64,000 nt of DNA from an uncultured virus (IMG/VR IMGVR_UViG_3300044716_000940) (IMGVR_UViG_3300044716_000940), one strand, 5' to 3'. Positions 43,212 through 59,094 are shown, numbered from the stretch's first letter. The notes: generated by a model from the letters alone, not told the origin. Translations and numbers: made by a program.

Positions 43212-43223
43212 CCTTGGATGGTC

Positions 43224-43240: not shown

Positions 43241-43250
43241 GAGGGTGCTC

Positions 43251-43482: not shown

Positions 43483-43567
43483 TTAAACGACTTTTTTGTG
43501 CCTGAGGTCCATAACCAAGGAAAGAGTGAGAGTATTGACTGAATGATCCTTATTTATTATTAGATTA

Positions 43568-44092: not shown

Positions 44093-44281
44093 ATGTTTTA
44101 TTATTTAATCTCAAATGGTGTAGAAACGAAAGTTTCGAAATCTAAAAAGATACACGATAAATCTTACTTTACAAGCAACAACCATCCAAGCAAATTATCG
44201 CTTTGGGTTGATGCAAACTATAGTAAAATTACGACAATGGTTGTAAGTAAACAAACTTATGATACATTTAAATCAGCATAA
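44093..44281 (+). CDS. Hypothetical early protein
   Basis: 62 aa with RBS; stop codon lies in HHR1 stem I. Confidence 0.65.
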   Translation: MFYYLISNGVETKVSKSKKIHDKSYFTSNNHPSKLSLWVDANYSKITTMVVSKQTYDTFKSA

Positions 44282-44327
44282 CTGATGAGGCTTTATTAGC
44301 CGAAACTACCGAAAGGTAGTATTATGC
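44276..44327 (+). ncRNA. Hammerhead ribozyme HHR1 (type I)
   Basis: GCAUAA-CUGAUGA-GGCU(UUAUU)AGCC-GAAA-CUACC(GAAA)GGUAG-UA^-UUAUGC; predicted cut after 44321. Confidence 0.93.
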
Positions 44328-44463
44328 ATAATATGGTGAAAGCCATAGAAGCACCGTCGAGCCAGAGTTGAACAGAACGACGTAAAAGTAATCGAACTCA
44401 ACCGTTTCGAGGATAACGTAAAAATCCTCACTAAATTATTTTATTATTGAAAGGAAAATTATT

Positions 44464-44634
44464 ATGAATAAAATTATATATAACGGTTTTAACCGTGGAG
44501 GTATGGTTAGCGCCATACATATGGAGTGTGATACTTCAAGCTTTACTTATAAGCTCAACGATGATGAACTCATCAAAGCGTTTAAAGAAATCTTCGCTGG
44601 AAATGCAAATTTCCTAGCTGTGGAGGACTTATAA
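44464..44634 (+). CDS. Hypothetical early protein (56 aa)
   Basis: ORF MNKIIYNGFNRGG with AAGGA RBS; below the ORF-track cutoff. Confidence 0.55.
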   Translation: MNKIIYNGFNRGGMVSAIHMECDTSSFTYKLNDDELIKAFKEIFAGNANFLAVEDL

Positions 44635-44783
44635 TGTTTGAAATGAAATACTTAATCATTGTGATTGGATTAGTTTACTTTGGTATTGGATTAGACCAAT
44701 ATTTCAAAGGATCTTTACCAAACCTTATTGTTTACACTGGCTACGCCTTTAGTAACATTGGTTTATATTTATTAGCTAAATAA
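44634..44783 (+). CDS. Small membrane protein (49 aa)
   Basis: Hydrophobic ORF, GGAGG RBS, start overlaps upstream stop. Confidence 0.55.
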   Translation: MFEMKYLIIVIGLVYFGIGLDQYFKGSLPNLIVYTGYAFSNIGLYLLAK

Positions 44784-44794
44784 AGGAATTAAAA

Positions 44795-44965
44795 ATGGAA
44801 TTAGCATTTTCTATCGTGTTTATCGTTGTTGTGATTGCCGCTGTATTGGGTTATATCGCAAACATCGTTAAACTTTTTTCACAGCTACAAGTGGACGGTA
44901 AAACAATTGCAAGAGCTTGTGGAGTATTTATATTCCCACTAGGAGCAATCTTAGGATGGTTCTAA
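44795..44965 (+). CDS. Small membrane protein (56 aa)
   Basis: MELAFSIVFIVVVIAAVLGYIANIVK...PLGAILGWF; AAGGA RBS. Confidence 0.6.
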   Translation: MELAFSIVFIVVVIAAVLGYIANIVKLFSQLQVDGKTIARACGVFIFPLGAILGWF

Positions 44966-44966
44966 C

Positions 44967-45017
44967 AATCTAACTGACGAGTCGGTAACGACGAAACCAC
45001 GAAAGTGGTCTTAGATT
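44967..45017 (+). ncRNA. Hammerhead ribozyme HHR2 (type I)
   Basis: AAUCUAA-CUGACGA-GUCG(GUAA)CGAC-GAAA-CCAC(GAAA)GUGG-UC^-UUAGAUU; cut after 45010. Confidence 0.95.
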
Positions 45018-45036
45018 ATTCACAAAAGGAGATCTT

Positions 45037-45831
45037 ATGAAAAATGACGTAATTGACGTCGAAGTAAAAGATGTAAAAATTGAGCAATTTCTAACTGAAA
45101 AGAAGGAATTGGTTCTTAATGCAGCTCAACGCACCGTTGAAGCGTATCTTGAAGTTGGTAAGCATCTCAAAGAAGTAAATGAGAAATTAGCAACTCGCAA
45201 TGGCGTAAATAGTCGTTGGGGTAGTTGGTTAGAAGAAGTAGGATTTGAGAAACAAAACGCAATTAACTGCATTCTAGTCTATGAGCGCTTTGGGAGGAAA
45301 ATTGATTTTCTTCCAAGCCAATCGATTACTATTCTTCAACAGTTATCAAAACCATCTAACGATCCTGAAAAGGTTGCTTTAGTTGAGCAAAAACTAGCTA
45401 AAGGTGAAAAGATGACCGTTGCTCAAGTTAAGGAAGTTCTTAAAAAGCTACCTGAAACTGAGCGAGAAATTGTCGCTAAAGCGGGTTATGAGCTCGCTGA
45501 AGAAGAACGAACTGGTATGACTAGCCAAGAATTAGATGCTTTCTACGAAAAGCAAGCAATTGAATATCAAGAAATTGAAAATGATATTTCAGATTTAAAG
45601 CCTATCGTTAAAAAGCAATATTCTGAAATGGTAATTGAAAGCCATCGCGAAGCATTTCTAGACGATATTGAATTATATTCATGGATCTTAGAAATGAAAA
45701 CATTTGCTGAAAACAATGGATATGTGTGTAAAGCTCTTGAAAGAGAAAATAACACTGTATTTAATAACACAAAAGAGATTAAAGAGCATATTAAGCACGC
45801 TAAATCTCAATTAAAAGAAGTATTTAAATAA
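45037..45831 (+). CDS. DUF3102-like domain protein
   Basis: LEVGKHLKEV...WGSWLEE.GF N-terminal pattern. Confidence 0.55.
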   Translation: MKNDVIDVEVKDVKIEQFLTEKKELVLNAAQRTVEAYLEVGKHLKEVNEKLATRNGVNSRWGSWLEEVGFEKQNAINCILVYERFGRKIDFLPSQSITILQQLSKPSNDPEKVALVEQKLAKGEKMTVAQVKEVLKKLPETEREIVAKAGYELAEEERTGMTSQELDAFYEKQAIEYQEIENDISDLKPIVKKQYSEMVIESHREAFLDDIELYSWILEMKTFAENNGYVCKALERENNTVFNNTKEIKEHIKHAKSQLKEVFK

Positions 45832-45852
45832 TATAAAGAAGGAATAAATCTT

Positions 45853-46278
45853 ATGAAAAGCTTTAAAGTAACAGCAGCACAGATAAATAAAATTGCAAAA
45901 ACAATGACCAAAGGTTTAAAAGCCAGTGGTCCAGTTTTATCTACAGCTATTAAAGATGTAGCAACAACGCTGAGCGCTGAGCGCGCCCAAGAAATTGCTT
46001 CATGGAAAGTATTAAAAGAAGCGATTAATGAAGTTAATGCTGCTAATAAAAAGGCATTTATTAGTGGTGATGCCCGGGCATTAGCTAAAATGTGGGATAT
46101 ATTTCCAGTAGGTATGGAAGGACATTCACGTATTAGAGAATTAATGACACACAAAGACGCTAGAGCTAAAAACTCAGGAGTGATATGGTCTCAATATGTT
46201 GGCGACCATAAAGCAAACTTAAAGCGTGCAAAAGCATCTATTAACTATTCAACAGCATTGATCAATGCTTACATATAA
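45853..46278 (+). CDS. Hypothetical early protein
   Basis: 141 aa with RBS. Confidence 0.7.
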   Translation: MKSFKVTAAQINKIAKTMTKGLKASGPVLSTAIKDVATTLSAERAQEIASWKVLKEAINEVNAANKKAFISGDARALAKMWDIFPVGMEGHSRIRELMTHKDARAKNSGVIWSQYVGDHKANLKRAKASINYSTALINAYI

Positions 46279-46323
46279 CTGATGAGTCGGGAACGACGAA
46301 ACTGGAGAAATCCAGTCTTATAT
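46273..46323 (+). ncRNA. Hammerhead ribozyme HHR3 (type I)
   Basis: AUAUAA-CUGAUGA-GUCG(GGAA)CGAC-GAAA-CUGGA(GAAA)UCCAG-UC^-UUAUAU; cut after 46317. Confidence 0.95.
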
Positions 46324-46337
46324 TAAAAGGAAATATT

Positions 46338-46661
46338 ATGAAAAAAGAATTTAAACCATACGATTTTATCGTAGAAATAGACGGAAAGTGGTATACGTCT
46401 GTCGAGTTTCGCGTTATTGTGGATTATGAAAATATCCTAAGTGGTCGCGAGCTTGAAGAGTCTGTTATGCTTGACACATTGGTGTATGACCGTTGGAATA
46501 TGGTTATGCCTATTACTAAGCGTGCTCGTCTCCTAATGGATGATGGCACTGGTGTAATCAAAGAGTGTGGTCGCTTTAAGTATAAAGTAAACTTTAACTC
46601 ACGTCAAGAGTTGGACGACGATTATGTCGTTGATCCACGCAATAGTAAAGGAAAATACTAA
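46338..46661 (+). CDS. Hypothetical early protein
   Basis: 107 aa with RBS. Confidence 0.7.
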   Translation: MKKEFKPYDFIVEIDGKWYTSVEFRVIVDYENILSGRELEESVMLDTLVYDRWNMVMPITKRARLLMDDGTGVIKECGRFKYKVNFNSRQELDDDYVVDPRNSKGKY

Positions 46662-46770
46662 TGGATTATAAAGAACCGACTGTTGGAGAGATCATTGGAT
46701 GGGTAATCATCTTAATGGTCTTTTTTGCTTTTTTGTTTTTTGGTTTACACTTAGAAAGTAGAGGAATATA

Positions 46771-47007
46771 ATGACTGTAAAAGACACTATGATTTCGTTG
46801 GCGCTCACTCAGCTCCATACCGATCTTTACCGTATTTATGAGATATGGCTAGAAGTTGGCAATGGCGATATGAGCGTATTAGAGCAACGTATGGATAAAA
46901 CTCGTGATGAGTTTATGGCTCGCACAAGTGGCCATTTAACGGAGCAAGAGCAAACCCGCTTTTTCGTTAAAGCGTATGAAGATACGTTGATTGCTGTATT
47001 AAGTTAA
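46771..47007 (+). CDS. Hypothetical early protein
   Basis: 78 aa with GAGGA RBS. Confidence 0.65.
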   Translation: MTVKDTMISLALTQLHTDLYRIYEIWLEVGNGDMSVLEQRMDKTRDEFMARTSGHLTEQEQTRFFVKAYEDTLIAVLS

Positions 47008-47052
47008 ACTGATGAGTCCTCAATGGACGAAACCTCGTGAGAGGTCTTTAAC
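47003..47052 (+). ncRNA. Hammerhead ribozyme HHR4 (type I)
   Basis: GUUAAA-CUGAUGA-GUCC(UCAAU)GGAC-GAAA-CCUC(GUGA)GAGG-UC^-UUUAAC; cut after 47046. Confidence 0.95.
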
Positions 47053-47073
47053 ACTTATTATAAAAGGAATATT

Positions 47074-47292
47074 ATGCCAAATAGTAACATACCGAACATG
47101 TCTTATTGCATGTTTGAAAATACTGAAAGCGCACTTGAACAGTGTGTGGACGCTATGAGCGAAGCGTATGATGTAGAATCGCTTGATATGAATGAGCATG
47201 AGCGCAGCGCATTTTTGCGTATGAGAAATCTATGTAAAGACTTCTTAGCATTTCATGACGAAATTTTAAATAACACAAAGGAATCATTATGA
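47074..47292 (+). CDS. Hypothetical early protein
   Basis: 72 aa with MSYCMFENT motif and RBS. Confidence 0.7.
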   Translation: MPNSNIPNMSYCMFENTESALEQCVDAMSEAYDVESLDMNEHERSAFLRMRNLCKDFLAFHDEILNNTKESL

Positions 47293-47546
47293 AAATGAAA
47301 TATAAAGCAGCCTTTACGGCTTTGAAGAAAATCGGTTGTCCAGTGTATGAGCACTGCGACGATAACGGCAACTTTAGCATTTCTGCTGAAGAGGCTACGT
47401 CTTACTTATGGTGTGATTATTATGATGGATACCGAATTCCCGATTGGGAGTTTGGCGTAAGTCCTAAAATCACAGAGCTATTGCGCTCTAAAGGATTATT
47501 TGCTGAATGGCAAAATCCTGGTCGCTTAGTCGTATTTGAGATTTAA
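47289..47546 (+). CDS. Hypothetical early protein
   Basis: 85 aa, coupled start. Confidence 0.7.
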   Translation: MKMKYKAAFTALKKIGCPVYEHCDDNGNFSISAEEATSYLWCDYYDGYRIPDWEFGVSPKITELLRSKGLFAEWQNPGRLVVFEI

Positions 47547-47554
47547 GGAATACT

Positions 47555-48025
47555 ATGACAGACGAATTTTCTAATAAAGCTGAAAACAGTATAGCGAAAG
47601 AGCTTGGCATTGCCCAACGCTTTATCGTCTTAAACCAAATACGAACTCCTGATGGCACGATCTTACGATCGCTAAGCCGTCACCATTACCAAACCTATAT
47701 CGATAAGAACGGTAAAGAGTATATGGTTGATGGAGGTAATGATTACCTTCGTCGTAATCGCCATGACGATGCGCCATACGATGAGTTGTCGATTTATTCT
47801 GATGACTCTTTCGACGTAATCAGGAGAAGTTTGCATTGGGGCACTTACGGTCCCAAAGGTGATCAGCCAAAGCGCTATGTCCCACTAGCTGAACTGTCAG
47901 ACAACCATATAATGGCGATACTCGACACTCAAGCTCAAGTGCAAGGACAATTGCGCGAATGGTTTAAAGAAGAATTAAGATGCCGTGAATACGGTAAATA
48001 TGAATATATAAAGGATACATTATGA
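47555..48025 (+). CDS. Hypothetical phage protein
   Basis: 156 aa with MVDGGNDYLRR and WGTYG motifs. Confidence 0.7.
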   Translation: MTDEFSNKAENSIAKELGIAQRFIVLNQIRTPDGTILRSLSRHHYQTYIDKNGKEYMVDGGNDYLRRNRHDDAPYDELSIYSDDSFDVIRRSLHWGTYGPKGDQPKRYVPLAELSDNHIMAILDTQAQVQGQLREWFKEELRCREYGKYEYIKDTL

Positions 48026-48249
48026 ATGTAAATGATTTTGAAGTATTAAATCGCCGCTACGCTATCGACATTAATCGATTCCGTGATGGACAAGGTTTAA
48101 CCGTTAATTTATTTAACGCACTGTTTGACTATTATTGTCAATCAAACGAAATGCCTTATGGAGTCGCCAAGGCGAGAACCGGGGATCCGTATGAATGGAT
48201 CGATTCTCAATTTAGCGATTTCTTAAAAGATTTCGATAATTCACCGTAA
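48022..48249 (+). CDS. Hypothetical early protein
   Basis: 75 aa with EMPYGVAKARTGDP motif. Confidence 0.7.
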   Translation: MNVNDFEVLNRRYAIDINRFRDGQGLTVNLFNALFDYYCQSNEMPYGVAKARTGDPYEWIDSQFSDFLKDFDNSP

Positions 48250-48320
48250 CTGATGAGCCGTGCATTCGGCGAAACTATTGTTGTGCAAAATTAAACACTT
48301 GCGCTGCAGTAGTCTTACGG
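48244..48320 (+). ncRNA. Hammerhead ribozyme HHR5 (type I, extended stem III)
   Basis: CCGUAA-CUGAUGA-GCCG(UGCAUU)CGGC-GAAA-CUAUUGU.GUGCAA(loop)UUGCGC.GCAGUAG-UC^-UUACGG; cut after 48314. Confidence 0.92.
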
Positions 48321-48427
48321 CCACCGTTGGAGCCATCGCTATGGCGGTAAACAACGTCCTTGTATTAGTTGACTCCCTTTGTTGACGAAATGCGAGCGCT
48401 TTCGCAGGTTGAGCGTTATCAATTTGC

Positions 48428-48476
48428 CTGTCCATGGATGTGTGTCCATGCTGATGAGCCACAAATGGCGAAACAG
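48428..48476 (+). ncRNA. Hammerhead ribozyme HHR6 (type III)
   Basis: CUG-UC^-CAUGGA(UGUGUG)UCCAUG-CUGAUGA-GCCA(CAAA)UGGC-GAAA-CAG; short stem III; cut after 48432. Confidence 0.88.
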
Positions 48477-48497
48477 ACTTATTATAAAGGAAATAAA

Positions 48498-48746
48498 ATG
48501 GAATATACGAAACTAGAGGAATTGCAATGCACTTTCTCCGATTTTCACAAAGACTATTATGGTTATAGACCGCGCTTTGCTACCACTGAAGAGTGGAATA
48601 GCGAAGAATGGCTACAAGCTGCGATTGACAGTATTCACGATGCGATCGCTTATAGAGCAAGAACACCTGAAGGTCGAGCATCGCTGCTTGCTGAAGGGTG
48701 GAGTTATGAAGTAATTGATACTAATTTAAAAGGAAATATATCATGA
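48498..48746 (+). CDS. Hypothetical early protein
   Basis: Start MEYTKL at 48498 behind AAGGA; SDFHKDYYGYRPR motif. Confidence 0.7.
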   Translation: MEYTKLEELQCTFSDFHKDYYGYRPRFATTEEWNSEEWLQAAIDSIHDAIAYRARTPEGRASLLAEGWSYEVIDTNLKGNIS

Positions 48747-49177
48747 AAGTAGTAAATAATCCACAGGTGTATATGGAACCTGGAACCTATTATATTGGCG
48801 ATTTGTGCTATGTATTAGACGCTTCTTGGAGCGCATTCTGCAAACTCACTATACGTGATAACGAATGTCTTAACGGCGGATTTAGATTCGCTGATGGACG
48901 TGAGTTCGTGTCGTTTACAACCATCTATGGTGATGGCACATATACCGACGCAGAAGGTTTTAAATATCCAGTTGATGCAGGCTTAATTGGCTGTATTCGT
49001 GTTGAAGATATGGACTGCAGAATCGATACAATCACTGACTGCGGCCAAATCCGCGTTTTTACTAAACCGTTTGTATGCGAAAAGGTTGATGGTATCCTTT
49101 ACTTCGGTAAAGTGGCAATCGATCTTGACCCGTCTGACTGTAATCAAGAAGAAGAGGAGTATGACGATGAGTATTAA
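48743..49177 (+). CDS. Hypothetical phage protein
   Basis: 144 aa; YYIGDLCYV, T.YGDG.Y, VDAGLIG. Confidence 0.7.
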   Translation: MKVVNNPQVYMEPGTYYIGDLCYVLDASWSAFCKLTIRDNECLNGGFRFADGREFVSFTTIYGDGTYTDAEGFKYPVDAGLIGCIRVEDMDCRIDTITDCGQIRVFTKPFVCEKVDGILYFGKVAIDLDPSDCNQEEEEYDDEY

Positions 49178-49595
49178 CTTAGAACTGCTTGAAAAAGATA
49201 TGGATATACCTGCATGGAAGATTGCAGAAATGCAACGAGCAGAATTAGCTGATCCAGCCGGTATGCGTATGAATTTCTTAAACGGAACTTTATTTGCTAC
49301 ACATTATGCATATACTGATATTAATCCGTATGAAGTGATTCGTATTGTATCGGACAATTGCTTGGAAGTTCGTGAAATGACTCATGAGAATGATCCAAAC
49401 GATATGCCAAAGTTTGTGCCCGGTGGTTTTAGTGTCATTTGCACTCACTTTGGTAAACGTGTAATTACGTCTAATCCGAATGGTAAAACGTTTAAAATTA
49501 CTCGTAAAAAGAAAGATCCAACTCGTTGGGGATATAAAGGTTTGCGGTTCGGTTTAGATAAAGAGCCACACGCTTATTACGATCATAACTTTTAA
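49167..49595 (+). CDS. Hypothetical phage protein
   Basis: Probable start MSINLEL behind GAGGAG; ends YYDHNF. Confidence 0.65.
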   Translation: MSINLELLEKDMDIPAWKIAEMQRAELADPAGMRMNFLNGTLFATHYAYTDINPYEVIRIVSDNCLEVREMTHENDPNDMPKFVPGGFSVICTHFGKRVITSNPNGKTFKITRKKKDPTRWGYKGLRFGLDKEPHAYYDHNF

Positions 49596-49603
49596 GGATC
49601 ATT

Positions 49604-49807
49604 ATGAACATTGAGCATGAAAAGCATGCAGCTGTAATGGCGGATGAGATGTATAGTCAATTTAAAGAAAATACATTAGACTATGTCAGAGAATTTACCG
49701 TCACTAAAGATGGTTTCGATGATTTAGAAGACGCCATAGCAGTGGAAAACTATGCTATAACATTATTTGCAATTAAATTATTAAAGGAAATACACAACTA
49801 TGAATAA
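49604..49807 (+). CDS. Hypothetical protein
   Basis: 67 aa with RBS. Confidence 0.6.
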   Translation: MNIEHEKHAAVMADEMYSQFKENTLDYVREFTVTKDGFDDLEDAIAVENYAITLFAIKLLKEIHNYE

Positions 49808-50117
49808 CGCATTAAGAACCTCAACATGGGTAGCTACGCTCCCTACGCTCACGTCTGACGAAGATGTGCTTGCTTTACGCGCCATTAAATCGGCTGTAAA
49901 GTCAATTAACGAAAGCAACGCAATGGCCGATGGCTATGCAAAGAAAGGCTATCGCGCTCGCTTTAATAAGAGCTGCGAACAAGTCGGTTTGCCGCGCTAT
50001 CGCGTAACCATTCGTGCTCGCGGTCCTATCAATGGATACAAGTATGGATGGGGAGGCTACTTAAAGTTAGCTGGTGGTAGTCGCTTTGATATCTATATTC
50101 ACGAACGGAGAGCGTAA
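49800..50117 (+). CDS. Hypothetical protein
   Basis: 105 aa with RBS. Confidence 0.6.
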   Translation: MNNALRTSTWVATLPTLTSDEDVLALRAIKSAVKSINESNAMADGYAKKGYRARFNKSCEQVGLPRYRVTIRARGPINGYKYGWGGYLKLAGGSRFDIYIHERRA

Positions 50118-50383
50118 TGCCTAAGTTTAAGATACCAAAGAAATACCAAAAGTATATTGACGAAAGCTCTATCGATGTTTATCACGATCTGGATGCGTCA
50201 ACATATTTCGTATGGTTACGTTATGGATATTGTTATGACTATGAAAATAGCCGTAGCCATACTCAAGGATACGACTCACTTAAAGAGGCGTTAGCCGGTC
50301 TTGATAGCGTTTATCTTTGCAATTGCGATGATTGCGCTAAAGAGCCGCTTGGAACTCCAGTAAAGGACCTAATGAATGCCTAA
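50117..50383 (+). CDS. Hypothetical protein
   Basis: 88 aa, coupled start. Confidence 0.6.
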   Translation: MPKFKIPKKYQKYIDESSIDVYHDLDASTYFVWLRYGYCYDYENSRSHTQGYDSLKEALAGLDSVYLCNCDDCAKEPLGTPVKDLMNA

Positions 50384-50582
50384 ATTTGTGGTGTATGAAA
50401 CCAAAGACAACGGTAAGGATTATGTCCTTGCCACTGTCGAAGGTATGTCAGCTGCTATGAAAGAGCTGAAGCGCCGTAAGAAGTTGGTGAAAGAAACCTC
50501 TGTCGTCGGTATGCAAGACAAAGAGATTTATTTATTTATTAAAAAACATCAAGAAAAGGAATTAAAGAAAAATGGCAACTAA
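50376..50582 (+). CDS. Hypothetical protein
   Basis: 68 aa with RBS. Confidence 0.55.
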   Translation: MPKFVVYETKDNGKDYVLATVEGMSAAMKELKRRKKLVKETSVVGMQDKEIYLFIKKHQEKELKKNGN

Positions 50583-50805
50583 ACCTAACACAGTAAAGAA
50601 GCAAAAGAATGGTAACCTTACTCGTAACGGTAAGCCAAAGCTTAAGTCGTTAAGTGTTGCACAAATTCAAAAGCTAATCGATCAAGGTGCGCAGAAGAAT
50701 GCTACATCGAAGATTGGCAAGAAGATGGCGAAGCTTAAGAATGCACTATGTGCTCGCTTTACACCATTAGTCGATAGCGATCCTATCGGTTTTCAACAAA
50801 GTTAA
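50572..50805 (+). CDS. Hypothetical basic protein
   Basis: 77 aa; stop codon lies in HHR7 stem I. Confidence 0.6.
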   Translation: MATKPNTVKKQKNGNLTRNGKPKLKSLSVAQIQKLIDQGAQKNATSKIGKKMAKLKNALCARFTPLVDSDPIGFQQS

Positions 50806-50850
50806 ACTGATGAGTCCTTAATGGACGAAACCGCTTCGGCGGTCTTTAAC
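50801..50850 (+). ncRNA. Hammerhead ribozyme HHR7 (type I)
   Basis: GUUAAA-CUGAUGA-GUCC(UUAAU)GGAC-GAAA-CCGC(UUCG)GCGG-UC^-UUUAAC; cut after 50844. Confidence 0.95.
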
Positions 50851-50868
50851 ATATTATAAGGAGAATGT

Positions 50869-51699
50869 ATGGATGATTTTAAGCCAATGTTGGCTAGTGT
50901 ATTTAAACCAGAGAAATTAAAATTTCCAAAGTTAGCATCAAGAAAATTGGATGGTATTCGCTGTGTAATTCGTGATGGCGTTGCGCTATCTCGTAATGGC
51001 AAGCCCATTCGCAATACGCATATTCAATCCATTATTGGCCGTAAAGCGTTTAACGACTTAGATGGCGAATTAATGGTTGGTAAGCCGAACGATAAGCACG
51101 CATTTCGCACAGCGACAAGCGGTGTAATGTCAGAAGATGGCGAACCAGATTTTACGTTCTTTGTATTCGATATTATGGCTGATGGCGTTGGCTTTCAAGA
51201 GCGCTTAGCTGTAGCTAAAAGTATCGTAAAGAAAGCTGCAATGAAGCAAGTAAAGATTGTTGAGCATAAGATGGTCCGTAATATGGAACAGCTTGACGAG
51301 CTTGAAGCTGCCTTCCTTGAAGATGGATTCGAAGGCGTTATGTTGCGCTCACTTGATGGTCCATACAAGCTTGGACGGTCTAGCGTCACTGAAGGCCATT
51401 TGCTTAAAGTGAAGCGCTTTAGTGATGGCGAAGCTGTCATTGTCGATTACGTTGAAGAAGTTACAAGTAAAGATAGAACTCCTAAGAATTCATTAGGTAA
51501 ATTTATCTGTCGCTTGGAGAATGGCGTAGAGTTCGGCGTTGGCGGTGGGTATACTAAGATAGAGCGCGAAGAATTTTGGAAGAAGAAGGATAAGATGATT
51601 GGTCTAATATTAAAGTATAAACACTTTCCTATTGGCCAGCATGAGCGTCCACGTTTCCCAACGTTCCTTGGTATTCGCGACGAAAGCGATATGTCGTAA
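50869..51699 (+). CDS. ATP-dependent DNA ligase
   Basis: KLDGIR, LDGEL, FFVFD, EGVMLR, LLKVKRF, PRFP.F. Confidence 0.93.
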   Translation: MDDFKPMLASVFKPEKLKFPKLASRKLDGIRCVIRDGVALSRNGKPIRNTHIQSIIGRKAFNDLDGELMVGKPNDKHAFRTATSGVMSEDGEPDFTFFVFDIMADGVGFQERLAVAKSIVKKAAMKQVKIVEHKMVRNMEQLDELEAAFLEDGFEGVMLRSLDGPYKLGRSSVTEGHLLKVKRFSDGEAVIVDYVEEVTSKDRTPKNSLGKFICRLENGVEFGVGGGYTKIEREEFWKKKDKMIGLILKYKHFPIGQHERPRFPTFLGIRDESDMS

Positions 51700-51740
51700 A
51701 AACGGTTCACTCGGTTAATCCCGGGTGAGCTACTATCCCC

Positions 51741-51753
51741 TAAGTTATTGATT
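51741..51753. promoter_or_regulatory. Isolated seventh TAAGTTATTGATT (IHF consensus) site
   Basis: Same 13-mer as the 43.25-43.48 kb array, between a hairpin and the next RBS. Confidence 0.55.
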
Positions 51754-51767
51754 ATAAAGGACTTATT

Positions 51768-52157
51768 ATGAATAAACAGTATACAAAAGACAAACAAAGA
51801 GCTAACAACTCTCCGCTAGCTTACGCAAAATATCGATATAATGCTCAAAAGCAAGCTGCCAAAACGCGAGGAATTGCTTGGGAGCTTGAGCCTTATAAAG
51901 ATGAAGTAATTTTTAAAATTGCTACTGCGGTAGTCTGTGCTGAAAGCGGGCGTAAACTTGTTCACCAAATCGGCAAGTCTAATTCTTATAAACCTAGCAT
52001 CGATCGCATAACAAGTAAAATAGGATACACCATATCAAACATTCAAATAACAACTTCTAGCATTAATGTAGCTAAGATGTCTCTAGAATCTAAAGAGTTT
52101 TACGAGATGTGTAGAGACGTTGTTGCACATTCAGCTTCTAAATATGAAAGGCAATAA
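51768..52157 (+). CDS. Putative HNH-like endonuclease
   Basis: AK.RGI.W, C..SG, PSIDRI.S..GY...NIQ...N..K. Confidence 0.65.
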   Translation: MNKQYTKDKQRANNSPLAYAKYRYNAQKQAAKTRGIAWELEPYKDEVIFKIATAVVCAESGRKLVHQIGKSNSYKPSIDRITSKIGYTISNIQITTSSINVAKMSLESKEFYEMCRDVVAHSASKYERQ

Positions 52158-52525
52158 TGGCTGGACCTCAAGGTAAGGCAATGGCGGTTGGCTCTCACTG
52201 CGCACGCAAAAACGTGTCAGTTGACGGCTATACTCGCTATGCAGTAAGACCACACAATGTCGAGCCATCAGGCGTTTATTTGAATAAAGTAAAAGCATGG
52301 ATGCATGAACACATGGAGTGGGAGACAAAGCAATGGGAGAAGAAGTTTGGTGTCAAAGAGTGGTGGCAGATGGTTAAGATTGAAATGACCAATTACTGCT
52401 TCGGCTTTGAAGGCAATCAAGCGACTTATCTTTATTTAAAATATAAAGGAGAACTTGATGAATCGCAAGCGAAACCTAGTGGCGAAATACGCGGCAAGAT
52501 TCGCTATAAGCAAGCCGATTCTTAG
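52157..52525 (+). CDS. Hypothetical protein
   Basis: 122 aa, coupled start. Confidence 0.55.
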   Translation: MAGPQGKAMAVGSHCARKNVSVDGYTRYAVRPHNVEPSGVYLNKVKAWMHEHMEWETKQWEKKFGVKEWWQMVKIEMTNYCFGFEGNQATYLYLKYKGELDESQAKPSGEIRGKIRYKQADS

Positions 52526-52576
52526 CAAAAAGCAACGAGCTAAGAGTCGTAAAGTAAAACATAAGCGTAAGGATGG

Positions 52577-53056
52577 ATGATGAATATCTTTTATTTGCAC
52601 GAAGATCCTGTAATGGCGGCAGAAATGCATTGCGACAAGCATGTATGCAAGATGATTATCGAAACGGCTCAGATGATGAGCTCTGTTTATTCGCGATATG
52701 GTTGTGAAAATCCGCCATACAAACCAACGCATCAAAAGCACCCATCAACTGTGTGGACTGGCGACAGCCAACTACACTATAACTGGGTGCGCACGCTTGG
52801 TTTGCAGCTTTGCCGTGAATACACCAAGCGCTATAATAAAACCCATAAGACTGAAGCTGTTATAAAGGCTTTATGGTTAGCGCCAAAAGATATGCCGATA
52901 TTGGCATGGCAAGATCCGCCACAGTGTATGGATGCGGAGTATAAGCGTGATAATACGATCGAAGCTTATCGTAATTATTATATAATGGCGAAAGCTAAGT
53001 TTGCCAAATGGGCACACGCAACAAAGGCACCGCAATGGTGGCCTAACACAGTATAA
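52577..53056 (+). CDS. Pyrimidine-dimer glycosylase (DenV)-related family protein
   Basis: MNIFYL..DP..AA..HCDKHV.KMI.E.AQ, YK.TH..HP..W, EY..RY.K.H. Confidence 0.6.
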   Translation: MMNIFYLHEDPVMAAEMHCDKHVCKMIIETAQMMSSVYSRYGCENPPYKPTHQKHPSTVWTGDSQLHYNWVRTLGLQLCREYTKRYNKTHKTEAVIKALWLAPKDMPILAWQDPPQCMDAEYKRDNTIEAYRNYYIMAKAKFAKWAHATKAPQWWPNTV

Positions 53057-53100
53057 CTGATGAGTCCTAATGGACGAAACGCCGTGATGGCGTCTTATAC
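53051..53100 (+). ncRNA. Hammerhead ribozyme HHR8 (type I)
   Basis: GUAUAA-CUGAUGA-GUCC(UAAU)GGAC-GAAA-CGCC(GUGAU)GGCG-UC^-UUAUAC; cut after 53094. Confidence 0.95.
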
Positions 53101-53116
53101 ATTATAAAGGAGAACT

Positions 53117-54670
53117 ATGATAGATGAAATCAAGCAAAAGTTATCCATCGCCAAAGTAGAACTAAAGACAGAGCAAGCAGCTTTGCGCTCTTTAGTGGCG
53201 GTAAGAGATAGCGCAAAACGCGCAGCGAAAACAGCTGTTATGTTTCGTGGCACTCCGTTTTACTTCCGTATCGGAATGGACTTCCGCGGTCGTATGTATT
53301 ACAAAGGCGCTCACTTGAATCCTCAAATGGGCGATGACATTAAGTCAACATTAGTCTTAGCAAATAAAAAACCTTTAGGTGCTGATGGCTATAAATGGTT
53401 ATTGTGGGGAGTAGCATCCTCAGCTGGTTTCGATAAAGCTGATTTCCAAACACGTGTTAATTACACATTGGATAATTTATTCGAAATCAAAGAAGCAGTG
53501 GCTAATCCGAATGAATCTGAGTTCTTTAAGAAAGTTCACTCTGATGGAGAGCCTGCTTTATTCTTGCAGCGAGCCGGTGAGTTGGTGAAAGCGCTTGAGT
53601 CGGGTTCGATTCAGACGTATGAGACCGATATCACTATTGCTATGGACGCTACTTGCTCTGGCTTACAGCTATTATCCGCTGTGGCACGCGACGCTGAAGG
53701 CGGTTCGTTAGTGAATATCACAGCGACTGCTGAAGGTCAAACAGAAAAGCGAGATGTGTATAGCAAGGTTTGCCAGCTTATCTTAGAGAAGTATGCTGAT
53801 TTGCCGGATAATTTCTTTGCACAGTGGATTACCAAATATGGTCTTCCGCGTCGCTTTACAAAGAAAGTGGTAATGACATTGCCATACTCTGCTACGGTTC
53901 GTGGCGCGATCTCTTATGTTCAAGAGGAATTGTATGGTAATCCTGAGAAAGGTGCTTTGCCATACGATCTTCCAACTGAGCCAGCAGATCGCTTATCGCT
54001 ATTAATGGCGGCTAGAGCGTTAGCACATATTGATCGAGTGGATGAGGATATCTCAACTGACTCGTTATACTATGTGATGGCTACTGTGCTTGCTAAAGAT
54101 ATGCATGAGACTTGCCATAAAATCCTGCCAGCAGCTATGAAGCTATTGGACTTCTTTAAATCGACACCAAGTCATTTATTTGACCATGCGATTTGGAATA
54201 CTCCTGATGGCTTGCATGTTAAGCAGCTTTATGGTGTGAAAGAAGACTTTACTTTCCACTACAAGTTTATGCACACTGATCCAGCGACTGGTGAGATTGC
54301 TCCAACAACTATATTCCGTAAATATAACTATTTGGATCCGAGTGAGAAAAATAGAAGCAAAGCCGCTAATGGTATGCCACCAAATTGGGTGCACTCATTG
54401 GACGCTACGCTAGTTCGACGTGTGGTGTTAAAGTCTCCATTCGACATTGTGTGTATTCACGATTCGTTTGCAGCACACCCAGCTGATTGTAATAAATTAG
54501 CGTCGATTTTACGTGAAGAGTTTGTATGGTTAATTGAGCAAGATCCACTAGGAACTTTGATTAAACAGCTGAACGATCAAGTTGGCGCTCAAGTATTCTC
54601 CACTGAAGGATTGATGGTGAATACGCTAAAGACCGATGATCCACTAAGATCGGAGTTCTTATTCTGTTAA
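53117..54670 (+). CDS. T7-like RNA polymerase, C-terminal catalytic subunit
   Basis: DFRGRMY, DATCSGLQ (motif A), R..TKKVVMTLPY (motif B), PNWVHSLDA, IHDSF (motif C); lacks the N-terminal domain. Confidence 0.93.
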   Translation: MIDEIKQKLSIAKVELKTEQAALRSLVAVRDSAKRAAKTAVMFRGTPFYFRIGMDFRGRMYYKGAHLNPQMGDDIKSTLVLANKKPLGADGYKWLLWGVASSAGFDKADFQTRVNYTLDNLFEIKEAVANPNESEFFKKVHSDGEPALFLQRAGELVKALESGSIQTYETDITIAMDATCSGLQLLSAVARDAEGGSLVNITATAEGQTEKRDVYSKVCQLILEKYADLPDNFFAQWITKYGLPRRFTKKVVMTLPYSATVRGAISYVQEELYGNPEKGALPYDLPTEPADRLSLLMAARALAHIDRVDEDISTDSLYYVMATVLAKDMHETCHKILPAAMKLLDFFKSTPSHLFDHAIWNTPDGLHVKQLYGVKEDFTFHYKFMHTDPATGEIAPTTIFRKYNYLDPSEKNRSKAANGMPPNWVHSLDATLVRRVVLKSPFDIVCIHDSFAAHPADCNKLASILREEFVWLIEQDPLGTLIKQLNDQVGAQVFSTEGLMVNTLKTDDPLRSEFLFC

Positions 54671-54688
54671 AAATTTTATGAAAGAGAG

Positions 54689-55597
54689 ATGCTTATGGTA
54701 GAAACGACTAGAGAGTATCAAATGGAGCGAGAGTTCGAAATGATTAAGCTTGGGCTGCAAGTCCAGCAAAATCTAACGGTTAATCTTCGCATTGCATCCA
54801 TCGAATTTAAACGTGAAATCGAGCAATTGACACAAGCTATATTAACATGGAGAAAAGCCGATCGCTTTCGAGGTAGTGAGCGAAAGGCTTATTCTACGTT
54901 GTTGGATACTTTGCCAGCTCAAGTGGTTGCAGAGAATATTATTTATGCAATCCTTGAAACTCACTTAAAAACTGACGATGGCGCACCAATAACTTTCCAG
55001 TTTATTGTGACAAATGCTTTAATATTAAGCCGATTTAAGGCATTATTGCCAAAAGAAGCTACGGCTATTCCTCACCAATTTAAGTTTAAAATTGTGGATA
55101 TGCTTGTAACTAGAGGAGTGTATTTATTATCCTCAATCTTTGTGGTGAAAAAGCAATACCAAGAGATGGCGTCTATTGAGCTTACAACTCGTGCTAAAAA
55201 TCGTTTAGCTGAGGTAGACAGCCGATCGCTTATGTTTGATGGCCCAATGCACTGCAAGCCAGAAGATTGGGTTTCTGTATTTAATGGCGGTTATTTAACT
55301 TCTGAAATGCAGAAAACTGCACCATTGGTTCGGAGCTTGCAACATGACTTTAAAGAGCTAGTGGCCATTGATCGTTCTTTACAAGCTCACCCGGAAATCT
55401 TGCAATCCGTTAATAAACTGCAAGGCGTCTGTTTTAAAATCGATGAGAATTATGAGCAATATCATAATACTGTGGATAATTTTAGAATACACGCAATCAA
55501 AAAGGTTGAGACTAACTTAACCAAGCTAAAAGCCGAAATTCTTAAACTCGAGCAAGAGTTAAAAGAAGCTGAGGCCAGCACAGCTGATGAGACTTGA
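54689..55597 (+). CDS. T7-like RNA polymerase, N-terminal subunit
   Basis: PMHCKPEDW....GGY....PLVR...QSVNKLQ...FKID resembles T7 RNAP PCVVPPKPW..GGGY...LVR...AINIAQ...WKIN. Confidence 0.8.
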   Translation: MLMVETTREYQMEREFEMIKLGLQVQQNLTVNLRIASIEFKREIEQLTQAILTWRKADRFRGSERKAYSTLLDTLPAQVVAENIIYAILETHLKTDDGAPITFQFIVTNALILSRFKALLPKEATAIPHQFKFKIVDMLVTRGVYLLSSIFVVKKQYQEMASIELTTRAKNRLAEVDSRSLMFDGPMHCKPEDWVSVFNGGYLTSEMQKTAPLVRSLQHDFKELVAIDRSLQAHPEILQSVNKLQGVCFKIDENYEQYHNTVDNFRIHAIKKVETNLTKLKAEILKLEQELKEAEASTADET

Positions 55598-55627
55598 TTA
55601 GTCGAAACGCCGTGAGGCGTACTGTGC
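55578..55627 (+). ncRNA. Hammerhead ribozyme HHR9 (type I)
   Basis: GCACAG-CUGAUGA-GACU(UGAUU)AGUC-GAAA-CGCC(GUGA)GGCG-UA^-CUGUGC; overlaps the last codons of the RNAP N-subunit gene; cut after 55621. Confidence 0.93.
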
Positions 55628-55672
55628 AATACCCGGTATACCGCTAGGAAGTGTATTTCACCATGTGGAATA

Positions 55673-55701
55673 ATATCCGCCTTAGGTATACTAAGACATG
55701 G
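55673..55701 (+). promoter_or_regulatory. Candidate phage-RNAP promoter upstream of replication genes
   Basis: ATATCCGCCTTAGGTATACTAAGACATGG, exact inverted copy of 43182-43210. Confidence 0.65.
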
Positions 55702-55739
55702 AACCAAACCATGTTTTTTTTAACCTTATAGGAAATAAG

Positions 55740-56279
55740 ATGGCAAAACTTAAAAATGCAATCACGCCAAAAGGTGTATTGTCCTGGCCTTACATCGCTA
55801 AGCCAGATACACGATATAACCCTGAAGGTGTGTATAAAACCAGCATTGTCGTACCTGCAGCAGAAGCTGCTTCGCTGATGGAAATGTGCAAAACTCAATT
55901 TGTTGAAGAGCATGGACAGGCTAAGCTTGCAAAAGCTAATATGCCTTTTGAAGTAAATGAAGAGAGCGGTGAAGTTACGTTTAAATTCAAATCAAAGCGT
56001 CAACCAACTGTTTACGATGCCAAAGGCAAAGTAATTAAGAAAGTTCCGCAGATTTCTTCTGGCACTATTGCCAAAATCTCAACTGCAATTAACCCATACG
56101 CAACCGGCATTAATATTGGCGTATCGCTATATTTAAATGATGTTCAAGTAATTGAGCTCGTTGAATACGGCAAAGGCGCGGTATTTGGCGCTGAAGATGG
56201 TTATGAGTATGAAGATGATGGCTCTGTAGATGAAGAAAAGGAGCCAGCACTTGGCGAAAAGACCGACTCGGACTTCTAA
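55740..56279 (+). CDS. Single-stranded DNA-binding protein (T7 gp2.5-like)
   Basis: TPKG...PYI.KPD, GVSL.L..VQVIELVE, acidic tail ending in DF. Confidence 0.9.
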   Translation: MAKLKNAITPKGVLSWPYIAKPDTRYNPEGVYKTSIVVPAAEAASLMEMCKTQFVEEHGQAKLAKANMPFEVNEESGEVTFKFKSKRQPTVYDAKGKVIKKVPQISSGTIAKISTAINPYATGINIGVSLYLNDVQVIELVEYGKGAVFGAEDGYEYEDDGSVDEEKEPALGEKTDSDF

Positions 56280-56658
56280 GCAAGTTGGAAATTACTTAGG
56301 ATTTCGTTCTGGACTTGAAGAGCGTGTTGCCGAACAGTTAGTTGAAGCTAAAGTTCCGTTCACTTTCGAAGAGATGAAGATTAGTTATTTAAAGCCTGAG
56401 CGTAAAGCAATTTATACTCCTGACTTTGTATTATCTAATGGGATTATCGTCGAAACTAAAGGAAGGTTTTTAACTGCTGATCGGCAAAAACATCTGCTTG
56501 TCAAAGAGCAACATCCAGAGTTAGATTTACGTTTTGTGTTTAGCAGCTCAAAAACTAAAATTTCAAAATCATCAAAAACCTCTTACGGCGATTGGTGTGA
56601 GAAGAATGGTTTTCAATATGCTGACAAAACTATCCCCAACGAATGGCTAAAGGAATAA
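56230..56658 (+). CDS. Endonuclease I (T7 gp3-like)
   Basis: FRSGLEE, YTPDF.L.NGI.VETKGRF, DRQKHL, YGDWCEK.GF; start uncertain. Confidence 0.92.
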   Translation: MKKRSQHLAKRPTRTSKQVGNYLGFRSGLEERVAEQLVEAKVPFTFEEMKISYLKPERKAIYTPDFVLSNGIIVETKGRFLTADRQKHLLVKEQHPELDLRFVFSSSKTKISKSSKTSYGDWCEKNGFQYADKTIPNEWLKE

Positions 56659-56659
56659 G

Positions 56660-58270
56660 ATGGTTGAAGAAGAATCAAGGTTTCTTAGACATGAAGCATG
56701 CGATAATTGTGGGTCGTCAGACGCTAAAGGCGTTTACTCAAACGGCTCAACATTCTGCTTTAGCTGCCAAGCTTCTACACGAAGTGATGGCAGTGGCAAA
56801 GTAAAAGTGATGAATGCTACGGCACCATCGTTAGACCCATTTCATGCTGCCCAAGTTGAAGCATTGGCGGCTAGAGGTATTAGCGAAGCTACATGCCAAA
56901 AGTATAATGTTCGCAAAGGTGAGCACAGCGGTAAAATGGTGCATTTCTATCCATACGTTAAAGATGGCGTTATTATCGCCGCTAAGACTAGGGATAAAAA
57001 TAAAAACTTTAGCGTTATCGGTGATGGTAAGGACCTTCCATTCTTTGGACAACACTTATTCCCAAAGCCGAACGATAAGTTATCAATCACCATTACTGAA
57101 GGTGAAATTGACGCGCTATCTATGAGCCAAATAATGGGTAATAAATATCCTGTTGTTTCGGTGCCAATTGGTGCTCAAGGCGCTATGAAGACATTCCGCA
57201 ATAATATCGAATGGCTTGATGGCTGGAAAGACGTTGTTATTATGTTTGACAGCGATGGGGCTGGTAGAGAAGCTGCCTTAAAATGTGCAGAGATTCTCCG
57301 ACCAGGTAAAGCTCGTATTGCTGAGTTACCATTAAAAGACGCTAATGAAATGCTGATGGCGAATCGTGCCGAAGAGCTAATGAAATGCTTTTGGGATGCG
57401 AAATCGTTTAGGCCTGATGGCATTATTGCTGGCGCTGATTTATGGGACGCTGTAAACAAAGAAGATGCTATCGAAACAGTGGAGTATCCGTTTCAAAAGC
57501 TCAATGAACTTACTAATGGCATACGCCGTGGTGAGCTCGTAACCGTTACTGCTGGTAGTGGTATCGGTAAATCTGCATTTATGCGAGAGATAACTTATCA
57601 TCTCTTAAATAAAGGCGAACGCGTTGGTATGGTAATGTTGGAAGAAAGCGCACGTCGAACCGCTCTAGGTTTGATGGGCTTAGCTCTCAATAAGCCATTG
57701 CATATCAGCCGTGAAGGTATTTCACAAGAAGAATTACGCCAAGCATTTGATGAAACGCTTGGAAGTAATCGTGTATTCCTCTATGACCACTTCGGTTCAA
57801 CTGAAGTAGACCACTTAATGAATAAACTTCGTTATATGGTTAAAGGCTTAGAGTGTGATTGGTTAATATTAGACCATTTATCCATTCTCGTCTCAGGACT
57901 TGAAGGTATTGATGAGCGACGATTGATCGATCAAGCAATGACAATGTTGCGAACGTTTGTTGAAGAAACGGGTTGTGGATTATTATTGGTAAGCCATTTA
58001 CGACGGCCAGATGGAAAAGGCCATGAAGAAGGAGCTGCCACATCATTATCCCAACTACGCGGTTCACATGCAATTGCACAGTTGTCTGATATTGTGATTG
58101 GCCTTGAGAGAAATCAACAAGGCGAGAATCCTAACGAAACACTTATTAGAGTTCTCAAAAATCGCTTTAGTGGTAATACAGGATTCGGAGGCACTATGGT
58201 CTTTAGCAAAGAGACCGGTCGGCTTACCGAAGCATTTTCACAAGAAACATCACCATTTGGAGAATTTTAA
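56660..58270 (+). CDS. Primase-helicase (T7 gp4-like)
   Basis: Zn finger C..CGSSD...CFSC, TOPRIM ITEGEIDA, GSGIGKS, LDHLSI, LRGS.AIAQLSD, KNRF.G. Confidence 0.95.
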   Translation: MVEEESRFLRHEACDNCGSSDAKGVYSNGSTFCFSCQASTRSDGSGKVKVMNATAPSLDPFHAAQVEALAARGISEATCQKYNVRKGEHSGKMVHFYPYVKDGVIIAAKTRDKNKNFSVIGDGKDLPFFGQHLFPKPNDKLSITITEGEIDALSMSQIMGNKYPVVSVPIGAQGAMKTFRNNIEWLDGWKDVVIMFDSDGAGREAALKCAEILRPGKARIAELPLKDANEMLMANRAEELMKCFWDAKSFRPDGIIAGADLWDAVNKEDAIETVEYPFQKLNELTNGIRRGELVTVTAGSGIGKSAFMREITYHLLNKGERVGMVMLEESARRTALGLMGLALNKPLHISREGISQEELRQAFDETLGSNRVFLYDHFGSTEVDHLMNKLRYMVKGLECDWLILDHLSILVSGLEGIDERRLIDQAMTMLRTFVEETGCGLLLVSHLRRPDGKGHEEGAATSLSQLRGSHAIAQLSDIVIGLERNQQGENPNETLIRVLKNRFSGNTGFGGTMVFSKETGRLTEAFSQETSPFGEF

Positions 58271-58271
58271 G

Positions 58272-58517
58272 ATGAGCACAAACAACTACTTCGTAATCCG
58301 CGCAATCAAAGAAAAAGGCGTAGCAGCCTCTTCGTATATTGCAAAGAAATATAAAGTCAAAAACGTATCAGCCACTGTATCTGCCTTGCGCAAACGTGGT
58401 CATGAGATTGTAACACTCGCCGAAGGCTATGCATTACCGTTCGGCACGCGCGATGAAGCAGCTAAATTAAGTAAGACTGCGCGCAACAAAATTGCCAAGG
58501 AATTTGGCTTAGCATAA
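58272..58517 (+). CDS. Small HTH-like protein
   Basis: Start MSTNNY; IA..Y...NVSATVS.LR..G..I. Confidence 0.55.
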   Translation: MSTNNYFVIRAIKEKGVAASSYIAKKYKVKNVSATVSALRKRGHEIVTLAEGYALPFGTRDEAAKLSKTARNKIAKEFGLA

Positions 58518-58520
58518 TCA

Positions 58521-58580
58521 GTCTGACTGAAGAGTCCTTAATGGACGAAACCGCCACTCGGGAGAGTCGCGGTCTCAGAC
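58521..58580 (+). ncRNA. Hammerhead ribozyme HHR10 (type I)
   Basis: GUCUGA-CUGAAGA-GUCC(UUAAU)GGAC-GAAA-CCGC.ACUC(GGGA)GAGU.GCGG-UC^-UCAGAC; cut after 58574. Confidence 0.93.
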
Positions 58581-58649
58581 AACCCAAAACTATATCGATA
58601 ACCTGAATCGAATCCTCCTGTAGTTTAACATCCATTAGGAGTTAAAACT

Positions 58650-59048
58650 ATGAGCCTTAGAAATAAACTAATTTTAGCAAGTCGTGCACATTATGATGCA
58701 CATATTAGAAAACACATTATGAATGTGGAAGTTATCTTAGCAAATCCATTGGCGCTGCCTGAGCATGCTGATTTAATGGACGCTATTGAAAAAGAGCTTC
58801 TCATTGTTGATGAGTATCAAGGAAAACTCGACGCTCTAAATAAATATTTTAAAGTCGATGTGCCATTCACAACTAGCGATAGCGGTAGCGAAAACGGCAA
58901 TAACGGCAACAATGGTAATAAAGACGATAATAGCGATAACAGCGATAATAGCACGTCAAGCACCACTAGCACAACCACTCAAGCGGATGCTACAGTGACA
59001 GCAGGCGCTGGCTCACATATTGTTATTGAGCGACCATTCACAGTCTAA
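58650..59048 (+). CDS. Hypothetical protein with N/D/S/T low-complexity linker
   Basis: 132 aa with AGGAG RBS. Confidence 0.7.
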   Translation: MSLRNKLILASRAHYDAHIRKHIMNVEVILANPLALPEHADLMDAIEKELLIVDEYQGKLDALNKYFKVDVPFTTSDSGSENGNNGNNGNKDDNSDNSDNSTSSTTSTTTQADATVTAGAGSHIVIERPFTV

Positions 59049-59094
59049 CTGATGAGTCCTTTATGGACGAAACCGTAGCGATACGGTCTTAGAC
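59043..59094 (+). ncRNA. Hammerhead ribozyme HHR11 (type I)
   Basis: GUCUAA-CUGAUGA-GUCC(UUUAU)GGAC-GAAA-CCGUA(GCGA)UACGG-UC^-UUAGAC; cut after 59088. Confidence 0.95.

Follow-up and report, generated by a model that had tools for sequence, protein, structure and literature searches.

In bacteriophage T7, long transcripts are cut between genes at RNase III sites, as described by Dunn and Studier, and a hairpin is left at the 3' end of the upstream messenger RNA (mRNA). Other phages and prophages carry clustered hammerhead ribozymes that flank genes; in the text of Perreault 2011, arrays of these motifs cleave polycistronic RNA fully in vitro, and one of them also in E. coli (PMC3088659). The text of a 2019 review describes the role of bacterial and phage hammerheads as still open (PMC6765202). 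The subject of this analysis is an array of ten type I and one type III hammerhead motifs on the coding strand, at 44.3-59.1 kb, in DNA of an uncultured virus (IMG/VR IMGVR_UViG_3300044716_000940). The whole stretch analysed, 64,000 nucleotides (nt) long, is called the window, and positions are counted from its first letter. Like the clusters in the text of Perreault 2011, the array consists of several hammerheads that share the orientation of the genes and lie in the spaces within one polycistronic phage unit; unlike them, it has 11 copies along some 15 kb of an early/replication arm, in a phage whose replication genes are T7-like (PMC3088659). Processing of polycistronic phage mRNA, which the text of these two papers has proposed for clustered phage hammerheads since 2011, is the simplest account (PMC3088659, PMC6765202). 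Most of the hammerheads overlap the stop codon of the gene before them. The phrase 'stop codon' is absent from the text of PMC3088659 and PMC6765202, their supplements excepted, and a literature search found, with the same exception, no statement on stop codons inside phage hammerhead helices.

The T7 RNase III sites and the array are alike in their inter-gene cutting role and in their setting among genes for ligase, RNA polymerase, single-stranded DNA-binding protein (SSB), endonuclease I, primase-helicase and DNA polymerase. They differ in that the cutting predicted here would be autocatalytic and independent of the host, and would yield 2',3'-cyclic phosphate and 5'-OH ends. By analogy only, the hammerheads may be said to occupy the role of the T7 sites. 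The reading favoured here is that the eleven hammerheads probably cut a long rightward early/replication transcript into mRNAs of one or a few genes, with the upstream genes packed against the ribozymes. All 11 copies lie on the + strand between + strand genes, within 44.1-59.1 kb:

44276..44327, + strand: H1, type I; the upstream stop TAA (44279-44281) forms the inner 3 base pairs (bp) of stem I; predicted cleavage after 44321 (A17).
44967..45017, + strand: H2, type I with a 7-bp stem I; stop TAA at 44963-44965, 1 nt 5' of the stem, a further TAA at 44971-44973 being out of frame; predicted cleavage after 45010.
46273..46323, + strand: H3, type I; the stem I stop TAA lies at 46276-46278; predicted cleavage after 46317, 20 nt before the ATG of the next gene.
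47003..47052, + strand: H4, type I; stop TAA at 47005-47007, 1 nt 5' of CUGA; predicted cleavage after 47046.
48244..48320, + strand: H5, type I, its stem III being long; the stem I stop TAA lies at 48247-48249; predicted cleavage after 48314.
48425..48479, + strand: H6, type III, Rfam RF00008 (Hammerhead_3); probable cleavage after 48432, by which the ribozyme would remain on the downstream mRNA (ATG at 48498).
50801..50850, + strand: H7, type I; stop TAA at 50803-50805, 1 nt 5' of CUGA; predicted cleavage after 50844.
53051..53100, + strand: H8, type I; the stem I stop TAA lies at 53054-53056; predicted cleavage after 53094, 22 nt before the start of the RNA polymerase gene.
55578..55627, + strand: H9, type I; the upstream open reading frame (ORF) runs through stem I, the core and the 5' strand of stem II, and its stop TGA (55595-55597) is the first three bases of loop II; predicted cleavage after 55621 (A17).
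58521..58580, + strand: H10, type I with a CUGAAGA core; stop TAA at 58515-58517, 3 nt 5' of stem I, with TGA at 58524-58526 in stem I as the second in-frame stop; predicted cleavage after 58574.
59043..59094, + strand: H11, type I; stop TAA at 59046-59048 in stem I; predicted cleavage after 59088, 45 nt before the ATG of the DNA polymerase gene.

The identity of these motifs rests on several lines of evidence. A core-pattern search of the window gave 21 matches against 4.7 expected, a number reached by none of 100 shuffles, and 11 of the 21 lie within 44282-59072 on the + strand. A structural parser was applied whose target is the core CUGANGA followed by a stem II hairpin, GAAA and a stem III hairpin with A15.1-U16.1 as its closing pair, then a base other than G at position 17, and a stem I of at least 4 pairs between bases 5' of the core and bases 3' of position 17. 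Ten of the 11 + strand sites are complete type I hammerheads by this parser, which finds no type I hammerhead on the minus strand of the window. All ten carry the core bases C3 U4 G5 A6 N7 G8 A9, G12 A13 A14 and the A15.1-U16.1 pair; position 17 (H, never G) is C in eight copies and A in two, H1 and H9. Stems II and III are loop-closed and stem I is open in 10/10 copies, which is the type I topology. Stem I measures 6-7 bp (6 bp in nine copies, 7 bp in H2), stem II 4 bp and stem III 5-8 bp. The minimum free energy (MFE) fold is a three-way junction in seven of the ten type I copies, among them H1 (z -4.0).

Rfam lists only some of the copies. The gathering score of RF00163 (34 bits) is reached by one type I copy of ten, H8, with 36.6 bits; scores below it, between 28.3 and 32.5 bits, are returned for H2 (32.5), H4 (29.3) and H7 (28.3). 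H10 and H11 appear under related hammerhead models at E<=10, and the type III copy H6 scores 41.7 bits with RF00008 against a gathering score of 48.5, with two non-canonical pairs in its stem III. H1, H3, H5 and H9 are unlisted; seven of the 11 sites are listed at that cutoff. RF00163 (clan CL00010) has in common with the phage copies the core, the three-helix junction with open stem I and the predicted cleavage after nucleotide H17. In the phage family, by contrast, stem I is fixed at 6 bp, position -7 is A and the 3' strand is usually followed by A, features that are absent from the Rfam consensus line. The RAGATH-1 hammerhead was considered and rejected: its matches score 30-34 bits against a gathering score of 56.3, and come mainly from the shared core. 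A covariance model, R1, was built from 36 type I copies, 8 of them from the window. It gives 55.5 bits for H1, a member of the training set, and 54.8 bits for H10, which is not; H5 scores only 14.1 bits because of its long stem III. Among the 36 sequences, compensatory changes on both sides are seen in 12 of 15 pairs, the 100% pairing of this set being given by construction, as the sequences were parser-selected for pairing. Covariation independent of the parser's choice is found in the orthologues of H8, where GUAUAA/UUAUAC becomes AUGUAA/UUACAU. By sequence and structure the ten type I motifs are hammerheads, and self-cleavage is predicted for all eleven copies.

The position of the upstream stop was expressed as an offset, the first stop base minus the position of core C3. 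The offset is -3 in H1, H3, H5, H8 and H11, -4 in H4 and H7, -11 in H2, -12 in H10 and +11 in H9. In 10/10 type I copies, then, the stop falls between -12 and +11 of C3. An earlier note, made from the sequence of this DNA alone, had placed the upstream TAA in the 5' strand of stem I, at most 1 nt from CUGA, in seven of the ten type I copies. The offsets of -3 and -4 bear this out: in these seven the TAA occupies the last 3-4 nt of the 6-bp stem I. The rest of what it observed is right as well: the strand pairs that it gave as examples (GCAUAA/UUAUGC, CCGUAA/UUACGG, GUCUAA/UUAGAC) are correct as quoted, the core of H9 (its HHR9) does encode TADET* with the stop in loop II, and the stops of H2 and H10 (HHR2 and HHR10) do lie 1-3 nt 5' of stem I. 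Among the stop triplets present in the last 4 nt of stem I in the window, 7/9 are the in-frame first stop of the upstream gene, against 1/3 expected (binomial p = 0.008). Stops at -3/-4 are found in seven of ten window copies, against 8/86 other phage type I hammerheads (Fisher p = 5e-5). This contrast is if anything understated, because the outside sample contains a few members of the window's own clade (e.g. L039, L081).

The stop positions recur in relatives whose primase-helicase is about 77% identical. A primase-helicase search provided 80 viral loci; the nearest virus record, G001, is near-identical over H1-H5 and hence not independent. R1 matches only the window and the ten closest loci (L136-L145), whose primase-helicase is at least 76% identical. 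At E<=1 it finds nothing in L146, in L147 or in the 68 loci with primase-helicase identity of 58% or less. The hammerheads of this model are therefore a feature of one narrow clade. At H8 the upstream protein has the tail ..PNTV* in the window, and four relatives have ..PKLQTM* instead; the offset is -3 with either tail, and the covariation of stem I described above, between the window and these four relatives, follows the last codon. H4 is preceded by ..AVLS* in the window and by ..AVTNAS*, two residues longer, in L140, with an offset of -4 in both. Further offsets are -3 for H5 in L140 and L145, -3 for H11 in seven distinct orthologous sequences, including L137 and the more divergent contig L039, and -12 or -13 for the orthologues of H10. 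H7 has offset -4 in L145; the ORF of L140, whose tail differs, stops on the core UGA (+1). The type III motif H6 is kept in L140 and L145. H9 is missing from the same junction in both of these loci; a terminator in its place was considered, and scanning of the L140 junction did not reveal one. The gene that separates H10 from H11 is missing from L145, which has there a single hybrid ribozyme, H10-like on its 5' side and flanked 3' by sequence of the H11 type. At this hybrid site an unrelated small ORF ends on the same TAATCAGTCTGA as does the gene upstream of H10 in the window. Because the stop is kept at orthologous junctions while the protein tails change, it is anchored to the ribozyme and not to the protein. 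The earlier note would have counted random stop positions in relatives against its proposal; the positions at orthologous junctions are conserved. This conservation supports a ribozyme-anchored stop and does not separate coupling to translation from compaction. As a separate observation, two relatives without H10, H11 and the intervening gene (L146 at 3535-3807, L147 at 2870-3035) have a non-coding stretch of 170-280 nt before the DNA polymerase gene, with a GUCGGGAGAC hairpin that resembles the tip of stem III of H10. These stretches have no Rfam match at E<=1.

The wider family of phage type I hammerheads provides a second comparison. Two pattern scans of IMG/VR collected 98 and 64 distinct copies (loci L006-L135 and L216 onwards). 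The upstream reading frame was accepted as confident where the longest ORF had at least 70 codons and was at least 30 codons longer than any ORF in another frame, a longest-ORF rule and not gene calling. This held for 56/98 and 30/64 copies, 86 together, and the other 42 and 34 were dropped. The stop lies within -16..+12 nt of the core in 71/86 of these outside copies and farther out in 15/86. Four registers hold 52 of the 86 outside stops:

Register +1: 20 copies; the UGA of the core CUGA is reused.
Register -9: 12 copies; the conserved A at -7 is the last base of UAA.
Register -8: 12 copies; the A at -7 and G at -6 are the end of UAG.
Register -3: 8 copies; the UAA of stem I.

All four registers reuse conserved bases of the ribozyme, because the A at -7, the length of stem I and the flanking bases recur. 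Stem I is exactly 6 bp in 118/157 copies, base -7 is A in 120/157, and the base after the 3' strand is A in 99/157. UAA stands directly before CUGA in 52/162 copies (33/98 and 19/64), whether used as a stop or not. Where an outside copy has a stop triplet at the end of stem I, this is the real stop in 8/33 confident cases, which is not above the 1/3 of a random frame. An asymmetry between upstream and downstream spacers in the outside sample was set aside, as the longest-ORF rule skips small phage genes.

The spacing of genes in the arm points to packing. Where no hammerhead intervenes, most neighbouring genes overlap or are separated by a few nt, with gaps of -53 to +21 nt. At five hammerhead junctions the gap is 59-71 nt, near the minimum for a ribozyme plus a leader: a hammerhead of about 50 nt, minus the overlap with the ORF, plus a leader of 20-27 nt with a ribosome-binding site. 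TAA is the stop of 31/38 genes in the arm. A terminator scan found no convincing intrinsic terminator between the + strand genes, and long transcripts are therefore plausible. The leftward minus-strand arm (1-43000), which carries a 544-amino-acid (aa) ORF at 38370-40004 taken by eye as the large terminase, has no hammerhead by the parser or by R1. The ribozymes are confined to the early/replication arm.

The proposed course of events, including the transcript, its cleavage and the fates of both RNA ends, is a prediction from sequence. (i) A type I hammerhead would be kept whole on the 3' end of the upstream mRNA, after the stop codon, as two hairpins and a 2',3'-cyclic phosphate end. (ii) The downstream mRNA would begin with a 5'-OH and, at the shortest junctions, with a 20-27 nt leader that carries a UAAAGGAG-like ribosome-binding site. 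(iii) The outer half of the 5' strand of stem I is constrained by pairing only, not by sequence. (iv) The 5' edge of the ribozyme offers a set of stop triplets, through an A at -7, often a G at -6, often UAA at -3, and always the UGA of the core. (v) Each upstream gene would be packed up to or into the ribozyme and end on the first in-frame stop found there. With the preference of the window phage for TAA, the UAA of stem I is the usual stop; in other phages it is often the core UGA. (vi) The 3' strand of stem I has co-adapted to the last codon of the gene. An overlap that includes the stop would be safe for the upstream mRNA because the cut lies 3' of the whole type I ribozyme, so that the stop and a structured tail are retained. 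On this account the anchoring of the stop in the ribozyme would be a consequence of packing.

The earlier note had offered two explanations, coupling of cleavage to translation of the upstream gene and simple genome compaction. Compaction, its second, fits the data better, given the tight ribozyme-free junctions, the 59-71 nt ribozyme junctions and the in-frame use of 8/33 outside the window. Several observations weigh against the packing account. H1, H9, H10 and H11 touch or adjoin the upstream stop, yet 45-142 nt precede the next start codon, which packing alone leaves unexplained. The stem I of H3, H4 and H7, all A/U, is too weak and is missing from the MFE fold. The stop in stem I is used far more often here than in the wider family; the TAA preference of the window phage is a plausible, though unproven, cause of this excess. 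Nor does packing account for the excess of UAA ahead of CUGA across the family. The spacers after H1, H9, H10 and H11 hold repeated motifs, described below, that may be signals.

Three other explanations have to be weighed against packed processing sites. The first is that a stop triplet or triplets, the hammerhead and a ribosome-binding site move together as a portable punctuation module, by recombination between ribozyme copies. Such a module would bring a ready-made stop to any upstream gene and would delimit exchangeable gene cassettes within and between phage genomes. Sequence is shared beyond the core, with H4 and H7 89% identical over 53 nt and leaders that repeat TTATAAAGGA, as such movement would leave it. 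The hybrid ribozyme of L145, formed without the H10-H11 gene and preceded by an unrelated ORF that ends on the same stop, also speaks for it, as does the frequency of UAA before CUGA in unrelated phages, used as a stop or not. A weak hint comes from strain contigs in four DNA runs (X3, X5, X8, X10) that join hammerhead to hammerhead: the joint 45018->46325 occurs in 3/4 runs and 47045->48315 in two, and such joints would remove the intervening genes. The flanks of these joints are, however, only 26-33 nt long at a likeness setting of 80%, and joints of this kind often come from repeats or other organisms. The outer 3 bp of stem I are gene-specific and would need re-matching after each transfer, and several differences in gene content, e.g. 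at about 49.2 and 51.8 kb, are not beside a hammerhead. As the primary explanation a mobile module is unlikely, and it is compatible with the packing favoured here.

The second alternative is that cleavage is gated by translation. Ribosomes terminating on the upstream gene would pull stem I apart and lie over the core's 5' half, so that cutting would occur only in gaps between ribosomes or at low translation, and the splitting and stability of neighbouring mRNAs would be tied to the level of upstream translation. With a stop at -3 in its A site, a ribosome would hold the 5' strand of stem I and most of CUGAUGA, and a stop as far out as -12 would still leave stem I inside it. With these footprints and the stop range of -12 to +11, a ribosome would lie over stem I in all ten type I copies. 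The proposal in the earlier note that a terminating ribosome covers the core thus stands as geometry deduced from ribosome footprints; it is not special to the seven copies with the stop inside the stem. Stem I, only 6 bp long, A/U-rich and absent from the MFE fold of H3, H4 and H7, should be easily displaced. The retention of stop positions in relatives is also as expected under gating, and so are the stops of H1, H9, H10 and H11, which touch the ribozyme despite the 45-142 nt spacer behind it. Packing by itself would, however, produce the same geometry. Use of the stem I triplet in frame is at or below the random 1/3 in the wider family (8/33), and in 15/86 outside copies the stop lies more than 16 nt away or beyond +12. 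Moreover, if the T7-like polymerase of the phage transcribes the arm, transcription should outrun the ribosomes, and the ribozyme could fold and cut first. Gating by translation is accordingly judged quite unlikely. A specific form of it, in which the stop-in-ribozyme layout serves as a sensor, with terminating ribosomes holding the 6-bp helix open so that cutting takes place only when upstream translation thins, is more doubtful still.

The third alternative, that stops merely lie near the motifs and that an A/U-rich stem I contains TAA by composition, accords with the A/T-richness of the arm (GC content 0.34-0.43) and with TAA as its usual stop, and is very improbable in view of the in-frame use of 7/9 stem I triplets, the 7/10 against 8/86 at -3/-4, and the stop position that is kept at orthologous junctions though protein tails differ.

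Returning to the arm that the packed processing sites would serve, Pfam identifies on the + strand at 50.9-61.9 kb an ATP-dependent DNA ligase, a T7-type RNA polymerase, a T7-type SSB, endonuclease I, primase-helicase, family A DNA polymerase and a 5'-3' exonuclease. DNA of the window is present in lake-water metagenome runs, among which there is no RNA run, and a megablast comparison of window positions 43-64 kb with named phages gave no match. The following further features accompany the array:

53117-54670: the first of two genes into which the T7-type RNA polymerase is split in swapped order, encoding the 517-aa catalytic part (Pfam RNA_pol, 203 bits).
54689-55597: the second gene of this pair, encoding a 302-aa protein that matches RPOL_N weakly (29.7 bits, where the cutoff is 30.1).
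48315-48432: a non-coding stretch of 118 nt between the H5 and H6 cuts.
43250-43502: five tandem copies of a motif, about 30 nt long, that includes CTAAGTTATTGATT, shortly before the first + strand gene, with a further copy at 51738-51773 before the gene at 51768.
43009-43035, 43185-43211 and 43222-43248: three copies of a 27-nt repeat at the divergent region, with one reverse-complement copy at about 55673-55699, in the spacer after H9.
58584-58601, 47689-47706 and 42863-42880: an 18-nt motif, the first copy of which begins 10 nt past the H10 cut and is conserved in the H10 flanks of relatives.

The swapped order of the polymerase genes is found also in L140 and L145; H8 precedes the pair and H9 follows it. 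The 118-nt stretch would be cut free bearing a 5'-OH at one end and a cyclic phosphate at the other. Conservation of the stretch is good in L140, L145 and G001; its fold is not clearly better than those of shuffles (z -1.78), and no covariation is seen in three sequences. The CTAAGTTATTGATT repeat may be a promoter array for the arm. A T7-type promoter in stem III of H10, suggested by a loop that contains GGGAGA, was rejected: TCGGGAGA is not repeated, and its one-mismatch matches number 19 against 28 expected.

With eleven ribozymes in one 15-kb arm, beside well-understood T7-like genes, the window is a clean natural system in which to address the role of phage hammerheads. A comparison set is at hand, since close relatives keep the hammerheads and 68 more distant T7-like relatives are without them. 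The rule that genes stop on conserved bases at -9, -8, -3 and +1 aids the annotation of gene ends in phage metagenomes, and the same register rule indicates the depth to which a coding sequence can enter a type I hammerhead. Translation-dependent cleavage, if true, would be a new kind of gene control. Should the layout act as a sensor, the timing, segmentation and relative stability of early mRNAs would be set from translational load without any protein.

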